Positions 29,282-63,493 of a stretch of DNA of 64,000 nucleotides are shown piece by piece. The position numbers and the translations under genes were made by a program. Position 1 is the first letter of the stretch. Every line of letters starts with the position of its first letter. Below the pieces are notes generated by a model. It was not told where the DNA came from. It saw only the letters and a program-made list of their open reading frames with translations, and made no database searches. This DNA is from Verrucomicrobiales bacterium. Its GTDB lineage: Bacteria > Verrucomicrobiota > Verrucomicrobiia > Limisphaerales > JAYPEY01. The stretch spans positions 7,982 to 71,981 of the forward strand of contig JAYPFK010000035.1 of the NCBI GenBank assembly GCA_038126235.1. Reading direction: 5' to 3'.

Positions 29282-29425
29282 GAGGGGAAGCTGGGCGGCG
29301 TCTGAAAGAGGCTCAAGGAAATTGTCGCTGGCGGCTCGGGGAGCCGGTCGGGATTTCTCCTTCACGAACGATCACGGCGTGGATAGCTTTGGCGCGATCG
29401 GACCATTCGGTCCCTTGCAGCTTCT

Positions 29426-29520
29426 GGAGAGTGATGAGTGCCTGGTGGCCTCCGCGGTCTTCAAAACCGTTGATCCGGCGTCAAGTCGGAAGGTGTGTTC
29501 GATTCGCACCCTCTCCGCCA
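29426..29520 (+). tRNA. selC: tRNA-Sec (anticodon UCA)
   Basis: Long D stem with UGGU loop; anticodon arm GCGGT-CTTCAAA-ACCGT; long variable arm TCCGGC/GTCGGA; T loop TTCGATT; G discriminator and encoded CCA; selA and selB are in the window. Confidence 0.93.
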
Positions 29521-36886: not shown

Positions 36887-37912
36887 ATGAAGAAGAAGCC
36901 ACACACCCCCTGTCCCGACTGCGGCGACGCCGTTTCCCGCCGGAGTTTTCTCAAGTCCGCCACGACCGCCGCGGCTGCGACCGCGGTCCTGCCCTTTGGA
37001 GCCGTGACTTTTCCCGTTGCCGCCAAGGAGGCCAAGGCGAAGTCCCCGAAGGCCGAGACGCTGGTCAAGAGCCTCTATGACAGCCTGGACGAAAAGCAGC
37101 GCGGCGAGCTTTGTTTCGGTTTCGATCATCCGCTGAGGTCCAAGGTGGACAACAACTGGCACATCCTGAAGAAGCATCGGATCGCGGGTTCCTTCAACAA
37201 GGACCAACAGGCCCTGATCCGGGAGATCTTCCTGAACATCCACAGTGAGGAGTATCGCGGCGCGGTGATGAAGCAGGTGGAGCATGACAACGGCAAGGGC
37301 GGCTTCGGCAGCTGTTCCGTGGCGTTGTTCGGGAAGCCCGGCACAGGGAAGTTCGAATTCGTCTTCACCGGTCGTCACGTCACCCGGCGCTGCGACGGCG
37401 ACTCCCTGGAAGGCGCAGCCTTCGGCGGGCCGATCTTCTACGGCCACGCGGCGCGCTCCTTCAACGAGGATCCGGACCACAAGGACAATGTCTACTGGTA
37501 TCAGTCGAAGCGGGTGAACGAGGTCTTTCAGATGATGAACGGGAAGCAGCGCAAGCAGGCGTTGCTCGGGGATTCCCGCGGCGAACATGGCAACAAGACC
37601 GTGGAACTGAGCGGGAAGGTCGACGGCCTCGCCGGCATCCCGATGTCCGAACTGACCGCCGATCAGAAGGACCTCGCCCGGAAGGCTCTCGGGGATCTGC
37701 TGATGCCTTTCCGCGAGGTCGACCGGAAGGAGTCCATGAAGCTGATCGAGAAGAGCGGCTTCGACCGTCTCCACCTTTCCTTCTACAAGAATGAGGATGT
37801 CGGCAACGACGGCGTCTGGGACGTGTTCCAGGTCGAGGGGCCGAACATGGTCTGGTATTTCCGCGGCGATCCCCACATCCACGCCTGGCTGCACATCCGG
37901 GACGAGGCATAG
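36887..37912 (+). CDS. Tat-exported DUF3500-like protein
   Basis: SRRSFLK Tat motif; LYDSLDEKQR, GRHVT.R, FGGPIFYGH, RGDPHIHAW. Confidence 0.8.
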   Translation: MKKKPHTPCPDCGDAVSRRSFLKSATTAAAATAVLPFGAVTFPVAAKEAKAKSPKAETLVKSLYDSLDEKQRGELCFGFDHPLRSKVDNNWHILKKHRIAGSFNKDQQALIREIFLNIHSEEYRGAVMKQVEHDNGKGGFGSCSVALFGKPGTGKFEFVFTGRHVTRRCDGDSLEGAAFGGPIFYGHAARSFNEDPDHKDNVYWYQSKRVNEVFQMMNGKQRKQALLGDSRGEHGNKTVELSGKVDGLAGIPMSELTADQKDLARKALGDLLMPFREVDRKESMKLIEKSGFDRLHLSFYKNEDVGNDGVWDVFQVEGPNMVWYFRGDPHIHAWLHIRDEA

Positions 37913-38146
37913 AACAGCGGTCGAAGCCGCGCTTCGATCGGGAGCGTTCAGATCGGGCCTGTCATCGGAACTGCGCCGGCTCGAGCGCGCAGGTCATCCA
38001 GGAAAACTGCCCAGGCGCGGTTGGGGACTCAAGAGCCTCCGGAATCGCGGGTGTTAAACCTTGGGAGATTCGGGATCCGCGGATCCGCCCGATGGCCGAA
38101 CAAACAGTTGACAGTTGGCCTCCGATCCCGTTCTCTCCGTGGCTTC

Positions 38147-38197
38147 ATGACTCAGGACTTGAGACGACAATTTAATCGTTCTCGCCGACGCGGCTGA
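38147..38197 (+). CDS. Putative arg-operon leader peptide MTQDLRRQFNRSRRRG
   Basis: 6 of 16 codons are Arg (AGA CGA CGT CGC CGA CGC); perfect TTGACA at 38108; 70 nt upstream of argJ. Confidence 0.65.
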   Translation: MTQDLRRQFNRSRRRG

Positions 38198-38225
38198 TTC
38201 GGGAGCCGCGTTCGTCCTCTTTTCC
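38186..38225 (+). promoter_or_regulatory. Hairpin overlapping the arg leader stop codon, followed by a pyrimidine tract (putative attenuator)
   Basis: ACGCGGCT-gattcggg-AGCCGCGT, then TCGTCCTCTTTTCC. Confidence 0.55.
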
Positions 38226-38267
38226 GGTCAACGTCATCCCTCCTTTTTGACTCAAATTCCTTTTGAG

Positions 38268-39559
<1,292 letters not shown>

Positions 39560-39563
<4 letters not shown>

Positions 39564-40438
39564 TGGAGAAGCTGATTTCCAAGGCGTCCGTGTTGCTGGA
39601 GGCTCTGGCCTACATCCAGCGGTTCCGCAGCAGGACCTTTGTCGTCAAGTATGGCGGCAGCTTCATGGATTCGCCGGACCCCGAGGTGCGGACGGGCGTC
39701 GCGCGGGATGTGGTGTTCCTGGAGGCGGTCGGAATCGATCCAGTGGTCGTTCACGGCGGGGGCAAGGCCATCTCCAGGGCGATGGAGGCGAGCGGTCTAC
39801 AGGCGAAGTTCATCGAGGGGATGCGCGTGACGGACGAGGAGATCGTCTCGGTGGTGGACGACACGCTTTCACGGAAGATCAATCCGGAGATTGTCGAGAC
39901 CATCAACAATCTGGGAGGGCGGGCCCAGGGGTTTTCGGGGACGGAGATCTTCACGTGCGAGAAGTTCGAGCCGGTGGGCAAGGACGGGAAACCGAACGAC
40001 ATCGGATTTGTGGGGCAGGTGACCGGGGTGAACACGGAGCCGCTGCTGGAGTGCATCGCGAACCACGTGACGCCGGTGATCAGTCCGACCGCGCTGGGGC
40101 CGGACGGCAAGGTCTACAACTGCAACGCCGACATTGCGGCGGCGCAGGCGGCGATCGCCCTCAAGGCCAAGCGCCTGGTCTTCATGAGCGATGTGCCGGG
40201 GCTCATGCGGGATCCGGAGAATCCCGAGACCGTGATCCCGCACCTGCGGACGATCGAGGTCAAGGGACTGAAGGATTCAGGCATCATCGCGAAGGGGATG
40301 ATCCCCAAGGTGGACAGCGCCGTGGAGGCGATTCACTCCGGTGTGACCAAGGTGTCTTTTGTCGATGGGCGGGTGAACCACTCGGTGTTGCTGGAAATCT
40401 TCACCGACGAGGGCGTCGGAACGGAGGTGGTGCTGTGA
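39560..40438 (+). CDS. argB: Acetylglutamate kinase
   Basis: VVKYGGS, VVVHGGGK, GMRVTD, NCNAD, GMIPKV. Confidence 0.97.
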
Positions 40439-40475: not shown

Positions 40476-41741
40476 ATGGGCGAAACGGACAACAGACTTT
40501 CGGCCGGGGGGATCCGGGATCTCTTCAAGCAGCATGTCGCGCCGACGTATGGGCGGTTCGATCTCGTGTTGGAGCGGGGCGAGGGACGCCACGTCTGGGA
40601 CGTGGACGGAAAACGGTATCTCGACCTGGGCTCCGGAATCGCGGTCTGCTCGCTGGGGCACGCGAATCCCGAGATCGCCGACGCCATCTCGGCGCAGGCG
40701 CGGAAACTGGTCCACGTCTCCAACCTTTATCACTACGAGACGCAGGCGCGTCTGGCGGAGCGGTTGGCCGCGGCTGTCGGCCCAGGCAAGGTGTTCTTCT
40801 GCAACAGCGGCGCGGAGGCCAACGAGGCGCTTTACAAGCTGGCCCGGAAGTTTGGCCACGAGGAAGGTCGGTTCGAGATCATCACGGCGGCCAATTCCTT
40901 CCACGGCCGGACGCTGGCAGGCATTGCCGCGACGGGGCAGGACAAGGTGAAGGTCGGCTTCGAACCTGCCGTGCCAGGATTCAAACAGGTTCCCTACAAC
41001 GACCTGGCCGCGGTTGAGTCGGCGATTTCTCCCGCAACGGTCGCGGTGTTGATCGAGGGGGTGCAGGGCGAGGGCGGCATCACGCCGGCGACGCCCGAAT
41101 ACCTGCTTGGCCTGCGGAAACTGTGCGACGAGCGAAACTTGCTGCTGCTCTGGGACGGCGTGCAGTGCGGGCATTTCCGGACGGGGAGGTTTCAGAGTTT
41201 TCAACGGATTCTCGACGCCGTCGAAGGCGGCGAGGACTTCCTGCCGGATGGCATCTCGATGGCGAAGTCGCTGGGCGGCGGCTTTCCCATGGGCGCGGTC
41301 TGGATCCGCGGACCGCACGCCGACGTGCTGGGACCCGGCACGCACGGAACCACCTTTGGCGGGACGCCCCTGGCCTGCGCGGTGGGACACACGATCCTGG
41401 ATGTGGTGGAACGCGACGGTCTGGCGGACCGGGCGCGGGAGCTGGGAGCCCTTTTGAAATCGGAGCTGGAGCGGATGGCGGCGAGGTTCGCCGGCGCTAT
41501 CAAGGCGGTGCGAGGACTCGGCCTGATGGTGGGCTTCGAGTTCGCGGAGGACGCCGGGGGATTTGCGCACGGTTCGCCGAAGTCGATCCAGTTCGTGAAC
41601 CGGCTGCACGAGGCGGGGTTGTTGACCATTCCTTCCGGCGCGGCCGTGGTGCGGTTGCTGCCGCCGTTGAATCTTGCGGAAGAAGAGGCCCGGGAAGGGC
41701 TGTCCATCATCGAATCGGAACTGGAGAAGCTTTTGTCATGA
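40476..41741 (+). CDS. argD: Acetylornithine aminotransferase
   Basis: FFCNSGAEANE, SFHGRT, VQGEGG, DGVQCG, MAKSLGGG, HGTTFGG. Confidence 0.94.
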   Translation: MGETDNRLSAGGIRDLFKQHVAPTYGRFDLVLERGEGRHVWDVDGKRYLDLGSGIAVCSLGHANPEIADAISAQARKLVHVSNLYHYETQARLAERLAAAVGPGKVFFCNSGAEANEALYKLARKFGHEEGRFEIITAANSFHGRTLAGIAATGQDKVKVGFEPAVPGFKQVPYNDLAAVESAISPATVAVLIEGVQGEGGITPATPEYLLGLRKLCDERNLLLLWDGVQCGHFRTGRFQSFQRILDAVEGGEDFLPDGISMAKSLGGGFPMGAVWIRGPHADVLGPGTHGTTFGGTPLACAVGHTILDVVERDGLADRARELGALLKSELERMAARFAGAIKAVRGLGLMVGFEFAEDAGGFAHGSPKSIQFVNRLHEAGLLTIPSGAAVVRLLPPLNLAEEEAREGLSIIESELEKLLS

Positions 41742-42634
41742 AACACCTGCTGAGCATTGAGACGATGGATTCCGCGGACATGCGGGCGATCCTCACCCTG
41801 GCCGCCAAGCTGAAAGCGGAGCGTGGCGCGCACGCGGAGCAGCCGTTGGCCGGCCAGACCTGGGCCATGATTTTCAGCAAGTCCTCCACGCGGACGCGCG
41901 TCTCCTTCGAGGTCGGCATCCGCGAACTCGGCGGCAGCGTCATCTTCATGGGCGCGCGCGACATGCAGCTCGGCCGCGGCGAGCCGATCAAGGACACCGC
42001 CCGGGTGCTGGGCCGCATGACCCACGGCGCTGTGATCCGGACCTACGACCAGGCCGATGTGGAGGACTTCGCCGCGTATTCCGGGATTCCGACCATCAAT
42101 GCGCTGACCGATTTCTGCCACCCCTGCCAGATCCTGACGGACGTCTTCACCTTTGAGGAACAACGCGGCTCGATCGAGGGCAAGGTCGTGACCTTCGTCG
42201 GCGACGGGGCTTGCAACGTCTCCTCGGCTTGGGTCTTCGCGGCGAAGAAACTGGGCTTCGAGCTGCGCATTGCGGCGCCGAAGAAGTACCAACCCGACGC
42301 TGCCTTGCTGGAGAGGGCCGGCGGAAAGGTGACCTGCCACGAGGACATCAACGAGGCGGCCGAGGGCTCCGATCTGCTCTATACCGACGTGTGGGTCTCG
42401 ATGGGGCATGAGGACGAGTCCGCCCGGCGCATCGAGGAACTTACCGGATACCAGATCAACCAGGAACTGGTCGCGCGAGCGAACGAAGGGGCGCTGGTCA
42501 TGCACTGCCTGCCCGCCTACCGGGGCAAGGAGATCTCCGAGGAGACACTGGAGGCCCACGCGGACACGATCTTCACCGAGGCTGAGAACCGCCTGCACGC
42601 GCAGAAGGCGATTTTGCAATGGATCGTTTCCTGA
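41738..42634 (+). CDS. argF: Ornithine carbamoyltransferase
   Basis: SSTRTRVSFE, HPCQ, YTDVWVSMG, MHCLPAYRG, AENRLH; ATG at 41738. Confidence 0.97.
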   Translation: MKHLLSIETMDSADMRAILTLAAKLKAERGAHAEQPLAGQTWAMIFSKSSTRTRVSFEVGIRELGGSVIFMGARDMQLGRGEPIKDTARVLGRMTHGAVIRTYDQADVEDFAAYSGIPTINALTDFCHPCQILTDVFTFEEQRGSIEGKVVTFVGDGACNVSSAWVFAAKKLGFELRIAAPKKYQPDAALLERAGGKVTCHEDINEAAEGSDLLYTDVWVSMGHEDESARRIEELTGYQINQELVARANEGALVMHCLPAYRGKEISEETLEAHADTIFTEAENRLHAQKAILQWIVS

Positions 42635-42656: not shown

Positions 42657-43895
42657 ATGTCTACCGAAACCGCAGAGAATCCGACCCAGTCCAAGCCCCA
42701 GCGCATCAACCTGCGTCGTCCCGACGTCATGGAGAAGGTGCAGGCGCAGGTGGAGTCGCATTATCGCAGCCCGCTGATCGACCGGATCCGCGCCAATGGC
42801 GACATCCTGTCGGCGGACGGCGCGCTGACCGTGAAGCTGGCGAAGGAGTTCGGCTTCTGTTACGGCGTCGAGCGCGCCATCGACCTGGCCTATGCCGCGC
42901 GAAAGGTCTATCCGGAGCGGCCGCTCTACATCCTCGGCGAGATCATCCACAACCCTGAGGTGAACGACCAGATCCGCGCCATGGGCATCAAGGCCCTTTC
43001 CGGCAACCAGAAGGACGCGGACACCGACGAGTTGAAGGAGGGCGACATCGTCATCATTCCCGCGTTCGGCACGGAGGTGGAGACCCGGAAGAAGCTCCAG
43101 GAGAAGGGCTGCCAGTTTGTCGACACCACCTGCGGCGATGTGATGAGCGTCTGGAAGCGGGTCCGGCAATACGCCCGGGATACCGTGACCAGCATCATTC
43201 ATGGCAAGTCCTACCACGAGGAGACCAAGGCCACGAGTTCCCAGGCCACGGCAACAAACGGCCATTACCTGGTCGTGCTCACGCTGGAAGACGTTGATTA
43301 CGTCTGCAGCTACATCGTGAACGGCGGCGACAAGGCCGAGTTCCTGAAGAAGTTCGAGGGCTCCTACTCGCCGGGGTTCGATCCGGATGAGCACTTGAAG
43401 GCCGTCGGCGTCGCCAACCAGACCACCATGTTGCGCGGGGAGACGGAAGAGGTGCAGCGGCGCATCAAGCAGGCGATCCAGACGCGCTATGGCGCGGAGA
43501 ATCTGGACGAGCATTTCCGCTTCTTCGACACGATCTGCGGCGCGACCCAGGAGCGCCAGGACGCCCTGCAGAAAATGCTGCAGGAGCCCCTGGACATCCT
43601 TCTGGTCATCGGCGGCTACAATTCCTCGAACACCTCGCACCTGGCCGAAATGGGCGAGGAGAAGCTGCCGACCTATTTTATCAAGAACGCGGCGGAAATG
43701 GCTTCCAGCGATCTGATCCGGCATTTCGACTTGCACTCCCACGCGGAAACCGAGACGCGGGACTGGCTGCCGTCGGGCGCCATCACGGTCGGCGTCACGG
43801 CGGGCGCGTCCTGCCCGAACAACCTGATCGAGGACGTCATCCGGCGGCTCTTCGATCTCAAGGGGGTCTCCGTGCAGGAACTGCTGCCGGTCTGA
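42657..43895 (+). CDS. ispH: 4-hydroxy-3-methylbut-2-enyl diphosphate reductase
   Basis: FGFCYGVERA, EIIHNP, DTTCGDV, DTICGATQERQ, GGYNSSNT, TAGASCP. Confidence 0.96.
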   Translation: MSTETAENPTQSKPQRINLRRPDVMEKVQAQVESHYRSPLIDRIRANGDILSADGALTVKLAKEFGFCYGVERAIDLAYAARKVYPERPLYILGEIIHNPEVNDQIRAMGIKALSGNQKDADTDELKEGDIVIIPAFGTEVETRKKLQEKGCQFVDTTCGDVMSVWKRVRQYARDTVTSIIHGKSYHEETKATSSQATATNGHYLVVLTLEDVDYVCSYIVNGGDKAEFLKKFEGSYSPGFDPDEHLKAVGVANQTTMLRGETEEVQRRIKQAIQTRYGAENLDEHFRFFDTICGATQERQDALQKMLQEPLDILLVIGGYNSSNTSHLAEMGEEKLPTYFIKNAAEMASSDLIRHFDLHSHAETETRDWLPSGAITVGVTAGASCPNNLIEDVIRRLFDLKGVSVQELLPV

Positions 43896-43900
43896 GCGGC

Positions 43901-45082
43901 ATGGCCCGCACGCGTCAGGAATTGGAGCAACTGGAGAGGGAGTTTCTGGCTCCCTACGCGCAGTTTTCCGCGGACACCCGCGGCCGCGCCCACGAGGAAA
44001 GCGGTTCGGACTGGCGGACGCACTTCCAGCACGACCGGGACCGCGTGATCCATTCGCGCGCTTTCCGCCGCCTTGAATACAAGACGCAGGTTTTTCTCAA
44101 CGGCACGGGCGATCATCTCAGGACGCGGCTGACCCACACCATGGAGGTGGCGGGGATTTCCCGGAACGTTGCGCGGGCTCTCCGGCTGAACGAGGATCTC
44201 ACCGAGACCATCGCCCTGGCCCATGATCTGGGGCATCCGCCGTTCGGTCACAAGGGCGAGGACGCCTTGAACCAGCTCATGCGTCGCCACGGCGGCTTCG
44301 AGCACAACCGGCACAGCCTCCGCATCGTCGAGGAACTGGAACGAAAATACCCCGGCTTCAACGGACTCAACCTGACCTGGGAGACACGGGAAGGATTGGT
44401 TAAGCACTACACCAGCTACGATCATCCAAGCCGCCGAAAGGGTTTTGACGCGAAGTCGTCCTCGCTGGAGGCCCAGGTCGCCAACCTTTCCGATGAGATC
44501 GCCTATTACAGCCACGACCTGGATGACGGGCTGGAATCCGGCCTGCTGACGGAGAAGGACCTGAGAAAGCACGTCGGCATCTGGGGCAAGGCGCATCGGT
44601 CCGTGATGCGCGAGCATGGCCGGTTGCCCGACGAAAGCCGTCGCTACTTCATCATCCGGTGCATCATCGACATGCAGGTGAAGGACGTGGTGCGCAGCGC
44701 GGAGGAGCGCATCCTGGCGTCCGGGGTCGCCTCCGCGGACGACGTGCGGTTACAGCCGAAGGGGCTGGTCGATTACAGTCCCGGACGAAGGAGCGAGAAC
44801 CTGGAATTGCGCGACTACCTCTACAAAAACCTCTACTACAATCCCGTCGTGCACGAACCCAACATGCGCGCGGTGAAGCTGTTGGAGGAACTGTTCAAGT
44901 TTTTCGTCAAACATCCGGACCGGATCGGGGAGCCCTTCAAGAGCCGGGAGTCGAAAGACGGCGTGCATCGGGCGGTCTGCGATTACATCGCCGGAATGAC
45001 GGACCGCTACGTTCTCAAGGCGCATGAGAGCTTCGTGCTGGGGCGGGAGAAGGCGGGGGAGGATCTTTTCGTCGGTTATTGA
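43901..45082 (+). CDS. dgt: Deoxyguanosinetriphosphate triphosphohydrolase
   Basis: DRDRVIHSRAFRRLEYKTQV, RTRLTH, AHDLGHPPFGH, DYIAGMTD. Confidence 0.94.
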   Translation: MARTRQELEQLEREFLAPYAQFSADTRGRAHEESGSDWRTHFQHDRDRVIHSRAFRRLEYKTQVFLNGTGDHLRTRLTHTMEVAGISRNVARALRLNEDLTETIALAHDLGHPPFGHKGEDALNQLMRRHGGFEHNRHSLRIVEELERKYPGFNGLNLTWETREGLVKHYTSYDHPSRRKGFDAKSSSLEAQVANLSDEIAYYSHDLDDGLESGLLTEKDLRKHVGIWGKAHRSVMREHGRLPDESRRYFIIRCIIDMQVKDVVRSAEERILASGVASADDVRLQPKGLVDYSPGRRSENLELRDYLYKNLYYNPVVHEPNMRAVKLLEELFKFFVKHPDRIGEPFKSRESKDGVHRAVCDYIAGMTDRYVLKAHESFVLGREKAGEDLFVGY

Positions 45083-45290
45083 GGGTGACGATCGGGGAGA
45101 CTGCCGCGCGTGGGCGACAGTGATTGGCATTCAGATTCAATCACCGATTACAGATCACTGAATACTGATCGCCGACGACTGTCCCACCCGGGGCAATTCC
45201 CGGCCTAATTTGTAATTTGTCCTTTGCAGGCGCCGGGCGTAGTCTGCCGCGAGTTGTCTGAGACCAACAATCCCAACAGGAGAAACACCC

Positions 45291-60179: not shown

Positions 60180-62123
60180 TCAAATCTCCTTGCCGGTGAG
60201 GGCGCGTTTGTCGCCGTCGCGTTTGGTGACGCCTTCGCGGTCGAACTTTTCCAGGACGGGCATGACGATGCGGCGGCTGGCTCCGACGGCCTGCCGGAGT
60301 TCGCTGACGGTCGCCGGGCCGTTGCGCTTGATCCAGTCCACAATCCCGGTCGTCATGCCTTGGTAGACGGATTTAAGGATGACGATATCGGCGCACAGTT
60401 CGACGACTTCGCCGGTGTTGAGGAGGAATTTCATGACCTCCTGGGATTCGGCGTCCGGGGCGAGTTCCTTGCGTCCGGGCGGTTCAGTGGGCTTGGCGTT
60501 CAGCCCGGCTCGAATCTTGGCGGCGGCCGCCTTGAGGCGATCGGGCAGGGCGGGTGTGTGGGTCTTGCGCGCCAGGACGGTTCCCCGCTTTTCAAATTCC
60601 GATTCGCAGAGGTCGCCGAGAAGGAGGTCGACCGCGTCAGGCGAACCGAGTTGCTCGATGAGAGCGGCGCGGGATTCGGTCAGGGGGAGTCCGGGAAGCT
60701 CCGGGTGGGCGGCGTGGAAGGCGTTGATCAGGTCCGCGAGAGTTGCGCCGGCGGCGCGCCAGGCATCCTGATCGGCGACGATGCCCTCGCGCTCGACGAG
60801 TTTCCCCTCCGCGATCAACTCGCCCAAGGCTTGGCGGACGGCGTTCGGGCCGAAACGCGATTGGTGAAGGACCCGCTCCGCCTTGGCGGCGGTGTCACGG
60901 CTCAGTTGGCTGGCGGTCCAGACGCGAAGGTCATCCGGTTCCCCGGCGCGGGCTTCCAGCAGGGAGCGCTGGGCCTGGCTGCGGAAACGTCTGCGATTGG
61001 CGCGTTCATCGAGTATCCGGCCGCCGGCAAGGGTCGCCTGCTCAGACCAGTCGCGGACGATGAAGCGGTCCCCGGCGGCGGCGAAAACCGGGCGTTCAAA
61101 GCGCAGTTCGGCGATGTCCGATTCGCCGGGCAGCAGTTCCTTGCGGTCGAGCAAGAGGACGCGCGCGGGGTGGTTGCCGCTGCCCATGTGGACGCGGACG
61201 CGGGTGTTGTTCTTGAGTGGGCGGTTGACGCTGTACTGGCCGCTGTCGAGCCGCGGTGAGCGCTCGATCCAGACATCGAGGGCGTCGGAGGTTTCGCCGG
61301 CGTCGGGCAGGGTGACAATGTCGCCGCGTTGCACGCCCTCGGCGCCGTGGGAAGTGTCATGTCCGAGGTCGGGAAGATTGACCGCCGTGCGTGTGCCGGG
61401 GCCCACGGATTCCACGTCCGCGTTGTGCGCCTGGATGCTGCGCAGCCGGCTGGTCGCGCCGGAGGGTTGCAGGGCGACGGTCTGGCCCTTGGTCAAGGTC
61501 CCGCCGGTGAGCGTGCCGGTGACGACGGTGCCGATGCCCCTCAAGGTAAAAACCCGATCGACCGGCAGGCGCGGGCGTCCGATGTCGGCCGGCGGCGGCG
61601 TGTCGGCGAGCACATCAAGCAGCGCCTGTTTGAGTTCGGGGATGCCGACGCCGGTCGTGACGGAGGTTCCGATGATGGGGGCTTCGGCGAAGGGGGTTCC
61701 GGCGAGTTCCTCGCGGACCATCTCGACCGCGAGTTCCGCGTCCGCGTCGGGCAGGTCGATCTTGGTCAAGGCCACCACGGCCTTCGTCACGCCGAGATAG
61801 GCGAGGATCTGCGCGTGTTCCTCGGTCTGGGGCATCCAGGAGTCGTCCGCCGCGACGACGATCAACGCCAGGTCGATGGAGCCGACGCCGGCGACCATGT
61901 TCTTCACGAAGTCTTCATGGCCCGGCACGTCGATGATGCCGAGTCGGTATTGCTTGTCCCCGGAATCGAGGTCCAGGGAGGCGAAGCCCAGATCGATGGT
62001 GATGCCGCGCTCCTTCTCCTCGGGCAGGCGGTCAGGATCGATCTGGGTCAGGGCCTTGATCAGCGAACTCTTGCCGTGGTCGACATGGCCGGCGGTGGCG
62101 AGGATGTAGTTGGCGGCGCTCAA
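60180..62123 (-). CDS. selB: Selenocysteine-specific elongation factor
   Basis: [33 protein letters not shown]-terminal winged-helix region; overlaps the selA stop. Confidence 0.96.
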
Positions 62124-63493
62124 AGCTTTTCAATCAAGAGGTCCTTCAGCGCCTCGACGAGCACGCGGTCGTGGTGAGGGAAGACAGTGCGGAGGTCGAG
62201 GTGGAAGGCGCCGGCGCCAATGGAACCTACAATGGGAAGGCGCGACCTGCGCAGCTTCGCGGCCAGGGCGGTCGGTGTCATGGTTTCGGGTTTGATCTGG
62301 ATCGCGACCGACGGAACGGCCGAACGGGGCAGGGTTCCGCCGCCAATACGGGATTCGCCTTCGCCGATCCGGACCTTCAGGGGCAGGCCTTCCAGTTTCT
62401 TCGCGATCTTCCGGGCGCGGGTTTTCAGTTCGACCAGGTCTGTGGACAGCATCTCCAACGTGGGAATGCCGGGGGCGGCGGCTTTCTTTCCAGTTGAAGC
62501 GGCGAGGTAGGTTTCCGCGGCGGCCTGCATGGCGGCGAGGATCAGCTTGTCGCAGCGCAGGGCGCGGAAGAACGGGTTCTTCTTGAGCGCGGCGACGTGA
62601 CGTCGTCTGCCGGCGATGATGCCGGCCTGGGGGCCTCCCATGAGCTTGTCGCCGCTGAAGCAGACAAGATCGACGCCGCGCTTCAGGACCTCGGCCGGGG
62701 TGGGTTCATGCTCCACGCCGGCGAACTGCGCGGTGTCGATCAGGGCTCCGCTGCCGAGGTCCTCGACGAAGGGGACGCGCTTCTTCCGGGCGAGCGCGGC
62801 GAGTTCCTCGGTCGAGGGTGAATCGACGAAGCCGTCCATGAAGAAGTTGCTGCGGTGGACCTTGAGCAGGAGCCCGGTGTCCTTCCCGATGGCGCGTTCG
62901 TAGTCGCGCGAGGAGGTCTTGTTGGTCGCGCCAACCTCGCGGAGCGTCGCGCCGCTGGATTCCAGGATGTCGGGGATGCGGAAGCCGCCGCCGATCTGGA
63001 CCAGTTCGCCGCGCGAGATGACGACCTCCTTCCTGGCTTCGGTGAAATGTCGGAGAATGAGAACCAGGGAGGCGGCGCAGTTGTTGACGATCGTCGCGGC
63101 TTCGGCGTTGCAGAGCTGGGCGAGGCATTGTTCCAGGTAGCCGCCGCGCGCGCCGCGCCTGCCGGACTCCAGGTCGAATTCCAGGTTGCTGTAGCCGGAG
63201 CCGATCAAGGTCAGTTCCTCAGCAGCATTGGCGGGCAGCGGGGAGCGGCCGAGGTTGGTGTGGACGATCACGCCGGTCGCATTGATCACCGGTTGGATGC
63301 GGGATTGGCGAAGGGAGGCGAGGGCGTTGCGGACGCGGTCCAGGACCGCGTCGAATCCTGGGATGTCGCCGGACCTGCGGATGTCGGCCAGGAGGTCACG
63401 GACGGTCGCGACGATCAGGGGGCGGGGGAGGTTGGTTTCGCCCAGCGATTGCAGGACCTTCTCGACCGAGGGAATGTCGCGGAGCTTGGGCAT
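62120..63493 (-). CDS. selA: L-seryl-tRNA(Sec) selenium transferase
   Basis: VINATGVIVHTNLGRSP, YSNLEFDL, SRGELVQIGGGFRIPD, EDLGSG, FSGDKLMGGPQAG (PLP lysine). Confidence 0.97.
   Translation of the reverse strand: MPKLRDIPSVEKVLQSLGETNLPRPLIVATVRDLLADIRRSGDIPGFDAVLDRVRNALASLRQSRIQPVINATGVIVHTNLGRSPLPANAAEELTLIGSGYSNLEFDLESGRRGARGGYLEQCLAQLCNAEAATIVNNCAASLVLILRHFTEARKEVVISRGELVQIGGGFRIPDILESSGATLREVGATNKTSSRDYERAIGKDTGLLLKVHRSNFFMDGFVDSPSTEELAALARKKRVPFVEDLGSGALIDTAQFAGVEHEPTPAEVLKRGVDLVCFSGDKLMGGPQAGIIAGRRRHVAALKKNPFFRALRCDKLILAAMQAAAETYLAASTGKKAAAPGIPTLEMLSTDLVELKTRARKIAKKLEGLPLKVRIGEGESRIGGGTLPRSAVPSVAIQIKPETMTPTALAAKLRRSRLPIVGSIGAGAFHLDLRTVFPHHDRVLVEALKDLLIEKL

Follow-up and report, generated by a model that had tools for sequence, protein, structure and literature searches.

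An Arg-codon leader ORF with a stop-spanning hairpin ahead of argJBDF, a candidate ribosome-mediated arginine attenuator in a Verrucomicrobiales bacterium

How is arginine synthesis regulated in a bacterium with no recognizable ArgR? In textbook accounts, arginine biosynthesis is controlled by the ArgR repressor or, in some Firmicutes, by T-boxes, and we know of none that lists a leader-peptide attenuator for this pathway. The question is raised by the argJBDF operon of a Verrucomicrobiales bacterium, which lies in a stretch of 64,000 nucleotides (nt) that we call the window and whose positions serve as our coordinates. Ahead of argJ is a short, unannotated open reading frame (ORF) rich in Arg codons that overlaps a hairpin, and a sequence-only reading of the window had proposed that the two form an arginine attenuator. 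The source genome (G000; 7.4 Mb in 105 contigs, 97% complete, 63.7% G+C) gave no match to the N-terminal domain of ArgR (PF01316), and neither did any of 41 genomes of the same order, 30 of which are at least 90% complete, in a search to which control genomes respond. The ArgR domain PF02863, sought in the source genome, also gave no match; the search for argR that the sequence-only reading had suggested thus came back empty, with ARG boxes not searched for. From the conservation of the leader, analogous ORFs in relatives, a compensated base pair and the failure to find ArgR, we think that the proposal was probably right: the leader most likely works as a ribosome-mediated attenuator through which arginine supply sets argJBDF expression.

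All parts of the leader lie on the + strand, in a 355-nt spacer between the end of the upstream gene at 37912 and the argJ ATG at 38268. The spacer contains a -35-like TTGACA box (38108–38113), of which the equivalent hexamer is present at 33 argJ loci of the order, and, further downstream, the leader ORF MTQDLRRQFNRSRRRG (38147–38197), whose 16 codons run from an ATG at 38147 to a TGA at 38195–38197. Six of the 16 codons, at positions 6, 7, 11, 13, 14 and 15, specify Arg (AGA at 38162, CGA at 38165, CGT at 38177, CGC at 38183, CGA at 38186 and CGC at 38189), and four of these six are rare in the source genome, where AGA, CGA and CGT account for 1.7%, 7.9% and 10.8%, respectively, of the Arg codons in 2259 long ORFs. 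The terminal Arg-Gly codons make up the 5′ arm of a hairpin (38187–38212; -17.4 kcal/mol) in which an 8-bp stem, ACGCGGCT (38188–38195) with AGCCGCGT (38204–38211), extends to nine pairs (38187–38195 with 38204–38212) around an 8-nt loop. The T of the stop codon is the final base of the 5′ arm, so the stop codon straddles arm and loop. After the hairpin comes a pyrimidine-rich, G-poor tract (38213–38267; 18 C, 22 T, 7 G and 8 A), a composition matched by 0.05% of the 55-nt windows of the genome; the tract might act as a U-tract, though a poor one, as a region of pausing or possibly as a site of Rho loading. Within it, a small hairpin of six pairs and a 5-nt loop (38251–38267) adjoins the argJ start. 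The sequence-only reading had drawn attention to the TTGACA, the ORF with its uncommon AGA and CGA codons, the 8-bp stem built on the final Arg-Gly-stop codons and the C/U-rich tract, and all of these were recovered here.

Does the leader belong to a known RNA family? Among Rfam 15 families searched in the window, T-boxes and other curated leaders included, none except tRNA-Sec reaches its gathering score, and within 38050–38350 there are chance-level matches only (E 0.12–3.3). No second copy of the leader was found in the genome with blastn. Since the hairpin taken by itself is unremarkable for GC-rich sequence, we draw its significance from comparison with relatives.

The leader mini-gene is kept in all five species of the genus (G000–G004), 70–72 nt before argJ, and a homologue of 16 codons with a matching stem, starting with GTG, is present in a second family (L006, L034). 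The genus alignment has eight variable columns across the 16 sense codons. Six of them are third positions, at which every change is synonymous; the other two fall in one codon and change Leu to Arg, giving a seventh Arg. The stop is preserved as TGA or TAA. In the hairpin, 93.7% of cells pair across seven sequences, compared with 30–46% when the partner is slid by one to three columns, and one stem pair that is C-G in the source genome is A-U in three species and G-U in one. The stretch from the start of the ORF to argJ is much better conserved within the genus than the DNA directly upstream, where even the neighbor varies: three species have a tRNA gene there and the source genome has a protein gene. 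Sequence blocks of the pyrimidine-rich tract are nearly invariant, and the small hairpin at the argJ start is kept without informative variation. A covariance model built from the seven sequences matched 5 of 151 genomes of the order, in two genera and once per genome, and these matches coincide with the leader positions just before argJ. Beyond those two genera the leaders are analogous and not alignable. The conserved, unannotated Arg-codon ORF with its stop-spanning hairpin is, on comparison of these sequences, a real feature of the region before argJBDF, and the conserved Arg-rich ORF that the sequence-only reading had proposed looking for in relatives is there.

In the source genome, 15 nt about 40 nt before the -35 box (38067–38081) match the loop and 3′ arm of the hairpin in its sister-species form, and overlap a perfect 14-nt palindrome (38073–38086). 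This element (38067–38086) is not seen upstream of the promoter in sister species and may be the remnant of a partial duplication.

If leaders of more distant lineages cannot be aligned, is there any sign that they share a function? From 30 genomes of the order, 80 species-representative contigs and 80 metagenome contigs, we collected 127 argJ loci that are not immediately preceded by argC and that have 120 nt or more of sequence ahead of argJ. A scan that selected ORFs by content gave weak enrichment and was for that reason replaced by a promoter-anchored test, in which upstream ORFs (uORFs) were defined purely by position, as the first ATG or GTG 34–44 nt downstream of TTGAC[AG], so that choice by content was avoided. 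TTGAC[AG] occurs within 300 nt in 50 of the 127 loci; the start codon at this distance opens argJ itself in 10, opens a short uORF in 23 (35–42 nt downstream) and is absent in 17. Removal of six close-kin rows (L002, L003, L005, L034, L039 and L061) left 17 non-redundant uORFs. Arg occupies 32 of the 85 last-five codon positions in these uORFs, compared with 14 of 170 in the other two frames of the same DNA (Fisher p = 5e-8), and 53 of 293 codons over the whole ORFs, compared with 54 of 586 (p = 3e-4).

Ten of the 17 uORFs hold at least two Arg in the last five codons (Arg-type), with tails RRRG, NRRS, RRRF, FRRE, RARS, SRRLQ, RRRTRR, RTRRI, RRRRR and VRVRF. A 40-nt window centered on the stop codon falls in the top 6.5% of local stability for seven of the 10 Arg-type uORFs and two of the seven others. 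In most Arg-type uORFs the stop codon lies in or at the hairpin loop and is followed by a U/C-rich tail; the spacer from stop to argJ measures 34–77 nt and is pyrimidine-rich in other lineages too. Counted by lineage, at least eight further lineages of the order have analogous uORFs, with two to five Arg among the final five codons and an end that falls within a hairpin or next to one, and the same architecture with unrelated leader peptides is seen in at least 10. Since the peptide sequences are unrelated, the design may have arisen repeatedly or diversified. Within the source genome, 13 of 466 promoter-anchored short ORFs have at least three Arg in the last five codons, and the argJ leader is the only one of the 13 that lies outside every open frame of at least 150 codons.

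Two arrangements elsewhere stand apart from these. At L029 (G010), a 12-codon uORF starting M-R-R-R-R-R spans -43 to -4 of argJ, with its stop one base before the argJ start, and is not at the usual distance from TTGACA. In Chthoniobacterales-type loci of more distant Verrucomicrobiota (L079, L082, L085, L086, L087, L092, L093 and L098), a shared motif pair within the approximately 50 nt before argC, consisting of a TTGCAAT-containing box and a second box that ends just before a GTG start, could be an operator.

How would such a short ORF be expressed? At 33 argJ loci, the start codon, whether of a uORF or of argJ, lies 35–42 nt after the start of TTGACA, and the 30 distinct promoter regions have a T-rich element at -18 to -9 of that codon. 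From this spacing and the T-rich element, we assign a putative -10 element, TTCTCT (38131–38136), 17 nt after the -35 box of the leader. We judge it weak because a consensus scan called no sigma-70 promoter at the leader; the sequence-only reading had also described the -10 as weak. With the usual 17-nt spacer, the 5′ untranslated region of the uORF would be a few bases at most, and the uORF is therefore probably leaderless or nearly so, which would explain why no Shine-Dalgarno sequence precedes it. At L021, L050, L120, L121, L142, L149, L175, L180 and other loci, argJ itself starts 40–42 nt after TTGACA with a T-rich element between, which suggests that argJ mRNAs of the order can be leaderless and that it has a type of promoter whose -10 is non-canonical. 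No RNA runs are listed as containing the locus; the stretch was found in four DNA runs of one estuary study.

We envision the following mechanism. Transcription would start a few bases before the ATG at 38147, and the 16-codon leader would be translated as a leaderless or near-leaderless mini-gene, with its terminal Arg-Arg-Arg-Gly-stop codons forming the 5′ arm of the hairpin and the U/C-rich tract lying beyond. With ample charged tRNA-Arg, the ribosome would reach the stop codon and depart, the hairpin would form and most transcripts would end or stop ahead of argJ, in the pyrimidine tract. With little charged tRNA-Arg, the ribosome would dwell on the terminal Arg codons and occupy the 5′ arm; the hairpin would not form, a segment further downstream may capture its 3′ arm and RNA polymerase would continue into argJ. 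That the uORF is translated, where its transcript starts and in which direction it responds are what we infer from this arrangement, and termination or pausing that depends on the hairpin is a read-out we hold with less confidence than the sensor as a whole.

A candidate for the downstream segment emerges from constrained folding. With the 5′ arm masked, the loop and 3′ arm (38201–38212) can pair with 38230–38240 (segment 3) in a 2:3 helix that encloses the pyrimidine tract; the T-rich tail lies upstream of this helix. Folding predicts an equivalent arrangement, its loop about 15 nt long, in the genus and at L008, L019, L045, L119 and L162. For the source genome, we regard this alternative helix as no more than suggestive.

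Several observations weigh against the attenuator. First, the folding energies are ordinary: 16 of 200 shuffles equal the hairpin alone (shuffle mean -13.5 ± 2.7 kcal/mol) and the fold of the whole leader, with z = -1.19, is within the shuffle range. Covariation, which the sequence-only reading had proposed as a check, is partial: the compensated pair is there, but it is the only doubly changed pair, and a covariation score as high as the one seen arises in 42 of 500 column shuffles. The power of this comparison is low because metagenomes yielded only one further contig of the genus, with 67 nt of upstream sequence. Second, the termination signal is poor, as the sequence-only reading had recognized in calling the mechanism uncertain. 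The tail past the stem has three T in its first eight bases and is interrupted by C, in contrast to the clean T-run of the attenuator before ilvB described below, and folding of the leader revealed no classical 3:4 terminator downstream. The hairpin passes a loose terminator scan, though its tail mixes C with T; a survey of 587 hairpins after long ORFs in the source genome, most of which have no T-tail, was too noisy to define what terminator tails look like there. Third, in comparison with composition-preserving shuffles the 2:3 duplex is not exceptional, as the fraction of shuffles that do as well is 0.06 here and 0.013–0.66 elsewhere; the best lineages reach 0.013 and 0.047 and most are not significant.

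Other objections concern the geometry and distribution of the leader. Arg codons 6, 7 and 11 are so far upstream that stalling on them would leave the hairpin uncovered. If there is one hairpin only, a ribosome that lags should promote termination, which is the wrong direction. A terminating ribosome, at the stop codon, covers the stem just as a stalled one does, so the switch must tell the two apart by how long the ribosome dwells or by a reach that differs by a few nucleotides. Moreover, most argJ loci of the order have no leader of this kind; in many lineages, argJ follows rpsI-argC, the two genes of which are separated by a terminator, or starts about 40 nt after TTGACA. The loose content-only scan found 19 of 119 loci, compared with 11.4 ± 3.0 in dinucleotide shuffles (maximum 20) and 12 on the reverse strand, and a strict perfect-stem hairpin criterion, which misses bulged stems, was satisfied at 9 of the 119.

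If the attenuator is real, how far can the model be taken? A tentative extension, to which we give distinctly less credence than to the sensor itself, is that a minimal attenuator on a leaderless mini-gene governs arginine synthesis, that ribosome dwell time flips a 1:2/2:3 switch which exposes or buries a termination tract, perhaps with the help of Rho, and that this design has arisen or diversified repeatedly. That several lineages of the order carry an Arg-codon leader before argJ offers a concrete and testable answer to how arginine synthesis could be regulated without ArgR. The compact layout, with a probable leaderless uORF, a stop codon in the loop and no clean terminator, would make a simple system for asking how dwell time is converted into transcription. 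For annotation, the leaders mark a class of mini-genes overlooked by gene callers.

The alternative that survives best, although we consider it rather unlikely, keeps the sensor and changes the read-out. In this version, normal termination of the uORF would let the hairpin form and leave the C/U-rich tract single-stranded, so that Rho loads there and halts RNA polymerase soon after it enters argJ; stalling on the Arg codons would instead free the G-rich 3′ arm, which would pair downstream and hide the tract from Rho. The scarcity in the genome of windows like the tract, with its 18 C and 7 G in 55 nt, the poor U-tract for an intrinsic terminator and the presence of a rho gene (675 bits, above the family cut-off) all fit, as does the 2:3 helix that loops out about 15 nt of the pyrimidine tract in the genus and in several unrelated lineages. 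There is also a precedent, since translation of orf34 ahead of Salmonella speF is reported to counteract Rho (PMC6386406). The difficulty lies in the distances and in the pairing. The naked spacer is 55 nt here and 34–51 nt at L019, L045, L076 and L119, and Rho usually needs more naked RNA than this. The 2:3 pairing is, as noted, not significant in most lineages, and since argJ has no visible Shine-Dalgarno sequence, the U-rich tract may serve translation initiation instead.

The last point leads to translational control, in which the uORF and both hairpins would set argJ initiation through refolding or re-initiation. The 6-bp hairpin runs right up to the argJ ATG, neither this argJ nor that of other leader-bearing loci is preceded by a visible Shine-Dalgarno sequence, and two published Arg-codon leaders, rbfL (PMC13009471) and speF orf34 (PMC6386406), act on translation or mRNA stability. 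We nonetheless find this explanation improbable. The uORF stop is 70 nt from the argJ start, and 34–77 nt in other Arg-type leaders, which is too far for direct occlusion, and other lineages show no such hairpin next to argJ. With simple coupling or re-initiation, argJ would moreover be translated less when arginine runs short, the opposite of what a biosynthetic operon needs.

Could the locus have nothing to do with arginine? The ORF might be a by-product of a GC-rich, structured 5′ untranslated region whose CGN-containing stems happen to read as Arg, or the leader might bind a protein or ligand. That both the hairpin and the whole leader fold within the shuffle range is as this explanation would have it, and so is the frequency with which Arg-tailed short ORFs arise by chance in GC-rich DNA, seen in the content-only scan and in the 13 of 466 promoter-anchored short ORFs. 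Stem composition, though, does not account for an Arg excess that is specific to one frame of identical nucleotides, for variation confined largely to third positions with the stop kept as TGA or TAA, or for Arg codons 6, 7 and 11, which are outside the stem; nor would a by-product be expected to start at the fixed distance from TTGACA at which argJ starts in leader-less lineages, and no Rfam family matches the leader. We therefore give it little weight. Weaker still, to the point of being hardly credible, is a nascent peptide that senses free arginine, as fungal AAP and TnaC do for their effectors, and, when arginine is high, halts translation as the uORF ends and thereby shuts the operon: the Arg cluster directly before the stop is where arrest peptides act and a T-run (38241–38248) after the 2:3 helix could serve as a terminator, but that T-run is absent in other lineages, and what the peptides of different lineages have in common is limited to their terminal arginines, which makes a ligand pocket unlikely.

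What would the attenuator control? The genes argJ (38268–39563), argB (39560–40438), argD (40476–41741) and argF (41738–42634) all lie on the + strand and match their NCBIfam families above the curated cut-offs, with 4-nt overlaps between argJ and argB and between argD and argF. The closest relatives of ArgJ among the matches listed are 45–64% identical and come from Verrucomicrobiia, Limisphaerales and Pedosphaera. Within 22 nt of argF starts ispH (42657–43895, +), and within 5 nt of ispH a dGTP triphosphohydrolase (dGTPase) gene (43901–45082, +). Because the first terminator-like site past a gene end on the + strand is at 45188, ispH and the dGTPase gene may be co-transcribed with the arg genes, and so they too may be under the control of the argJ leader.

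The other arginine genes of the source genome appear to be arranged differently. Inspection of the regions upstream of argC, argG and argH revealed no Arg leader, and argC is located after rpsI and a terminator. On C2, a contig of the source genome other than that of the window, argG (C2:132249–133454, minus strand) has three GC-rich segments in the approximately 80 nt upstream of it, directly past the stop of the preceding gene. The middle segment can pair with either of the other two, and its hairpin with the third is followed by ATTTTC; the region resembles a terminator that competes with a helix upstream of it, and it has no Arg-rich ORF.

Does this genome use leader-peptide attenuation at all? 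The sequence-only reading had cited a parallel ilv leader within the window. That claim did not hold: none of 44 ORF translations in the window matches an ilv family and there is no convincing short ORF rich in Ile, Leu or Val. Instead, ilvB is on C2 (C2:170466–172235, minus strand), preceded by a classical Val-rich leader of 24 codons, 10 of them Val, that starts 40 nt after a TTGACC box and is followed by a GC hairpin and a clean T-run; the leader lies about 158–233 nt upstream of the ilvB match and is probably what had been meant. Judged by this sequence, the source genome does appear to use classical attenuation.

The window also contains a selenocysteine toolkit, consisting of tRNA-Sec (29425–29517; Rfam, 62.6 bits) and, on the minus strand, selB and selA (60180–62123 and 62120–63493, respectively).

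How does the argJ leader compare with systems that have been described? Full-text searches of the literature turned up no leader-peptide attenuator for an arg biosynthetic operon and none for Verrucomicrobia, although an older description is possible. In the available parts of a 2005 comparative survey, only T-boxes are named for arginine (PMC1262725), and an E. coli modeling study concerns tandem CGG codons inside argA and not a leader (PMC10325894). The arg operons controlled by ArgR or AhrC differ in their regulator, of which the source genome has no match.

Two bacterial leaders that read Arg codons come closer. In Salmonella speF, the ribosome is reported to pause at two consecutive Arg codons of orf34 under low arginine, switching the folds of the leader, and orf34 translation interferes with Rho-dependent termination (PMC6386406). 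The consecutive Arg codons of an upstream ORF, the alternative folds and the possible interplay with Rho resemble what we propose for argJ. The speF orf34 differs in controlling ornithine decarboxylase, and thus polyamine synthesis and not arginine biosynthesis, in its length of 34 codons, in having a conserved peptide domain and in a read-out that includes decay by RNase G; one would not expect the two leaders to be related in sequence. In S. aureus rbfL, also a small uORF, the rare Arg codons AGA and AGG pause the ribosome when arginine is limiting (PMC13009471). The rbfL leader differs in that it occludes the ribosome-binding site of a biofilm regulator, so that shortage lowers expression, and in involving no arg genes and no termination hairpin.

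More distant in kind is the fungal arginine attenuator peptide, a conserved peptide that responds to free arginine by arresting the ribosome on the stop codon, with no basis in Arg codons. The uORF of arg-2 and CPA1 is like the argJ leader in controlling an arginine-biosynthesis gene by arginine, and is eukaryotic. With the Rho-dependent leader-ORF attenuators (tnaC, mgtL and speF orf34), the argJ leader shares a C-rich, G-poor tract in a genome that has a rho gene.

The closest parallels in layout are the classical attenuators. Like trpL, hisL, leuL, thrL, pheL and ilvL/ivbL, the argJ leader is a short ORF before an operon, enriched in codons for the end product. In the trp leader, the 1:2 hairpin has the regulatory codons in its 5′ arm and the stop codon in its loop, and the argJ leader is arranged in the same way. 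It differs from the classical examples in being keyed to arginine, in having neither a clear 3:4 terminator nor a clean U-tract, in a uORF that is probably leaderless or nearly so and in matching no Rfam leader family.

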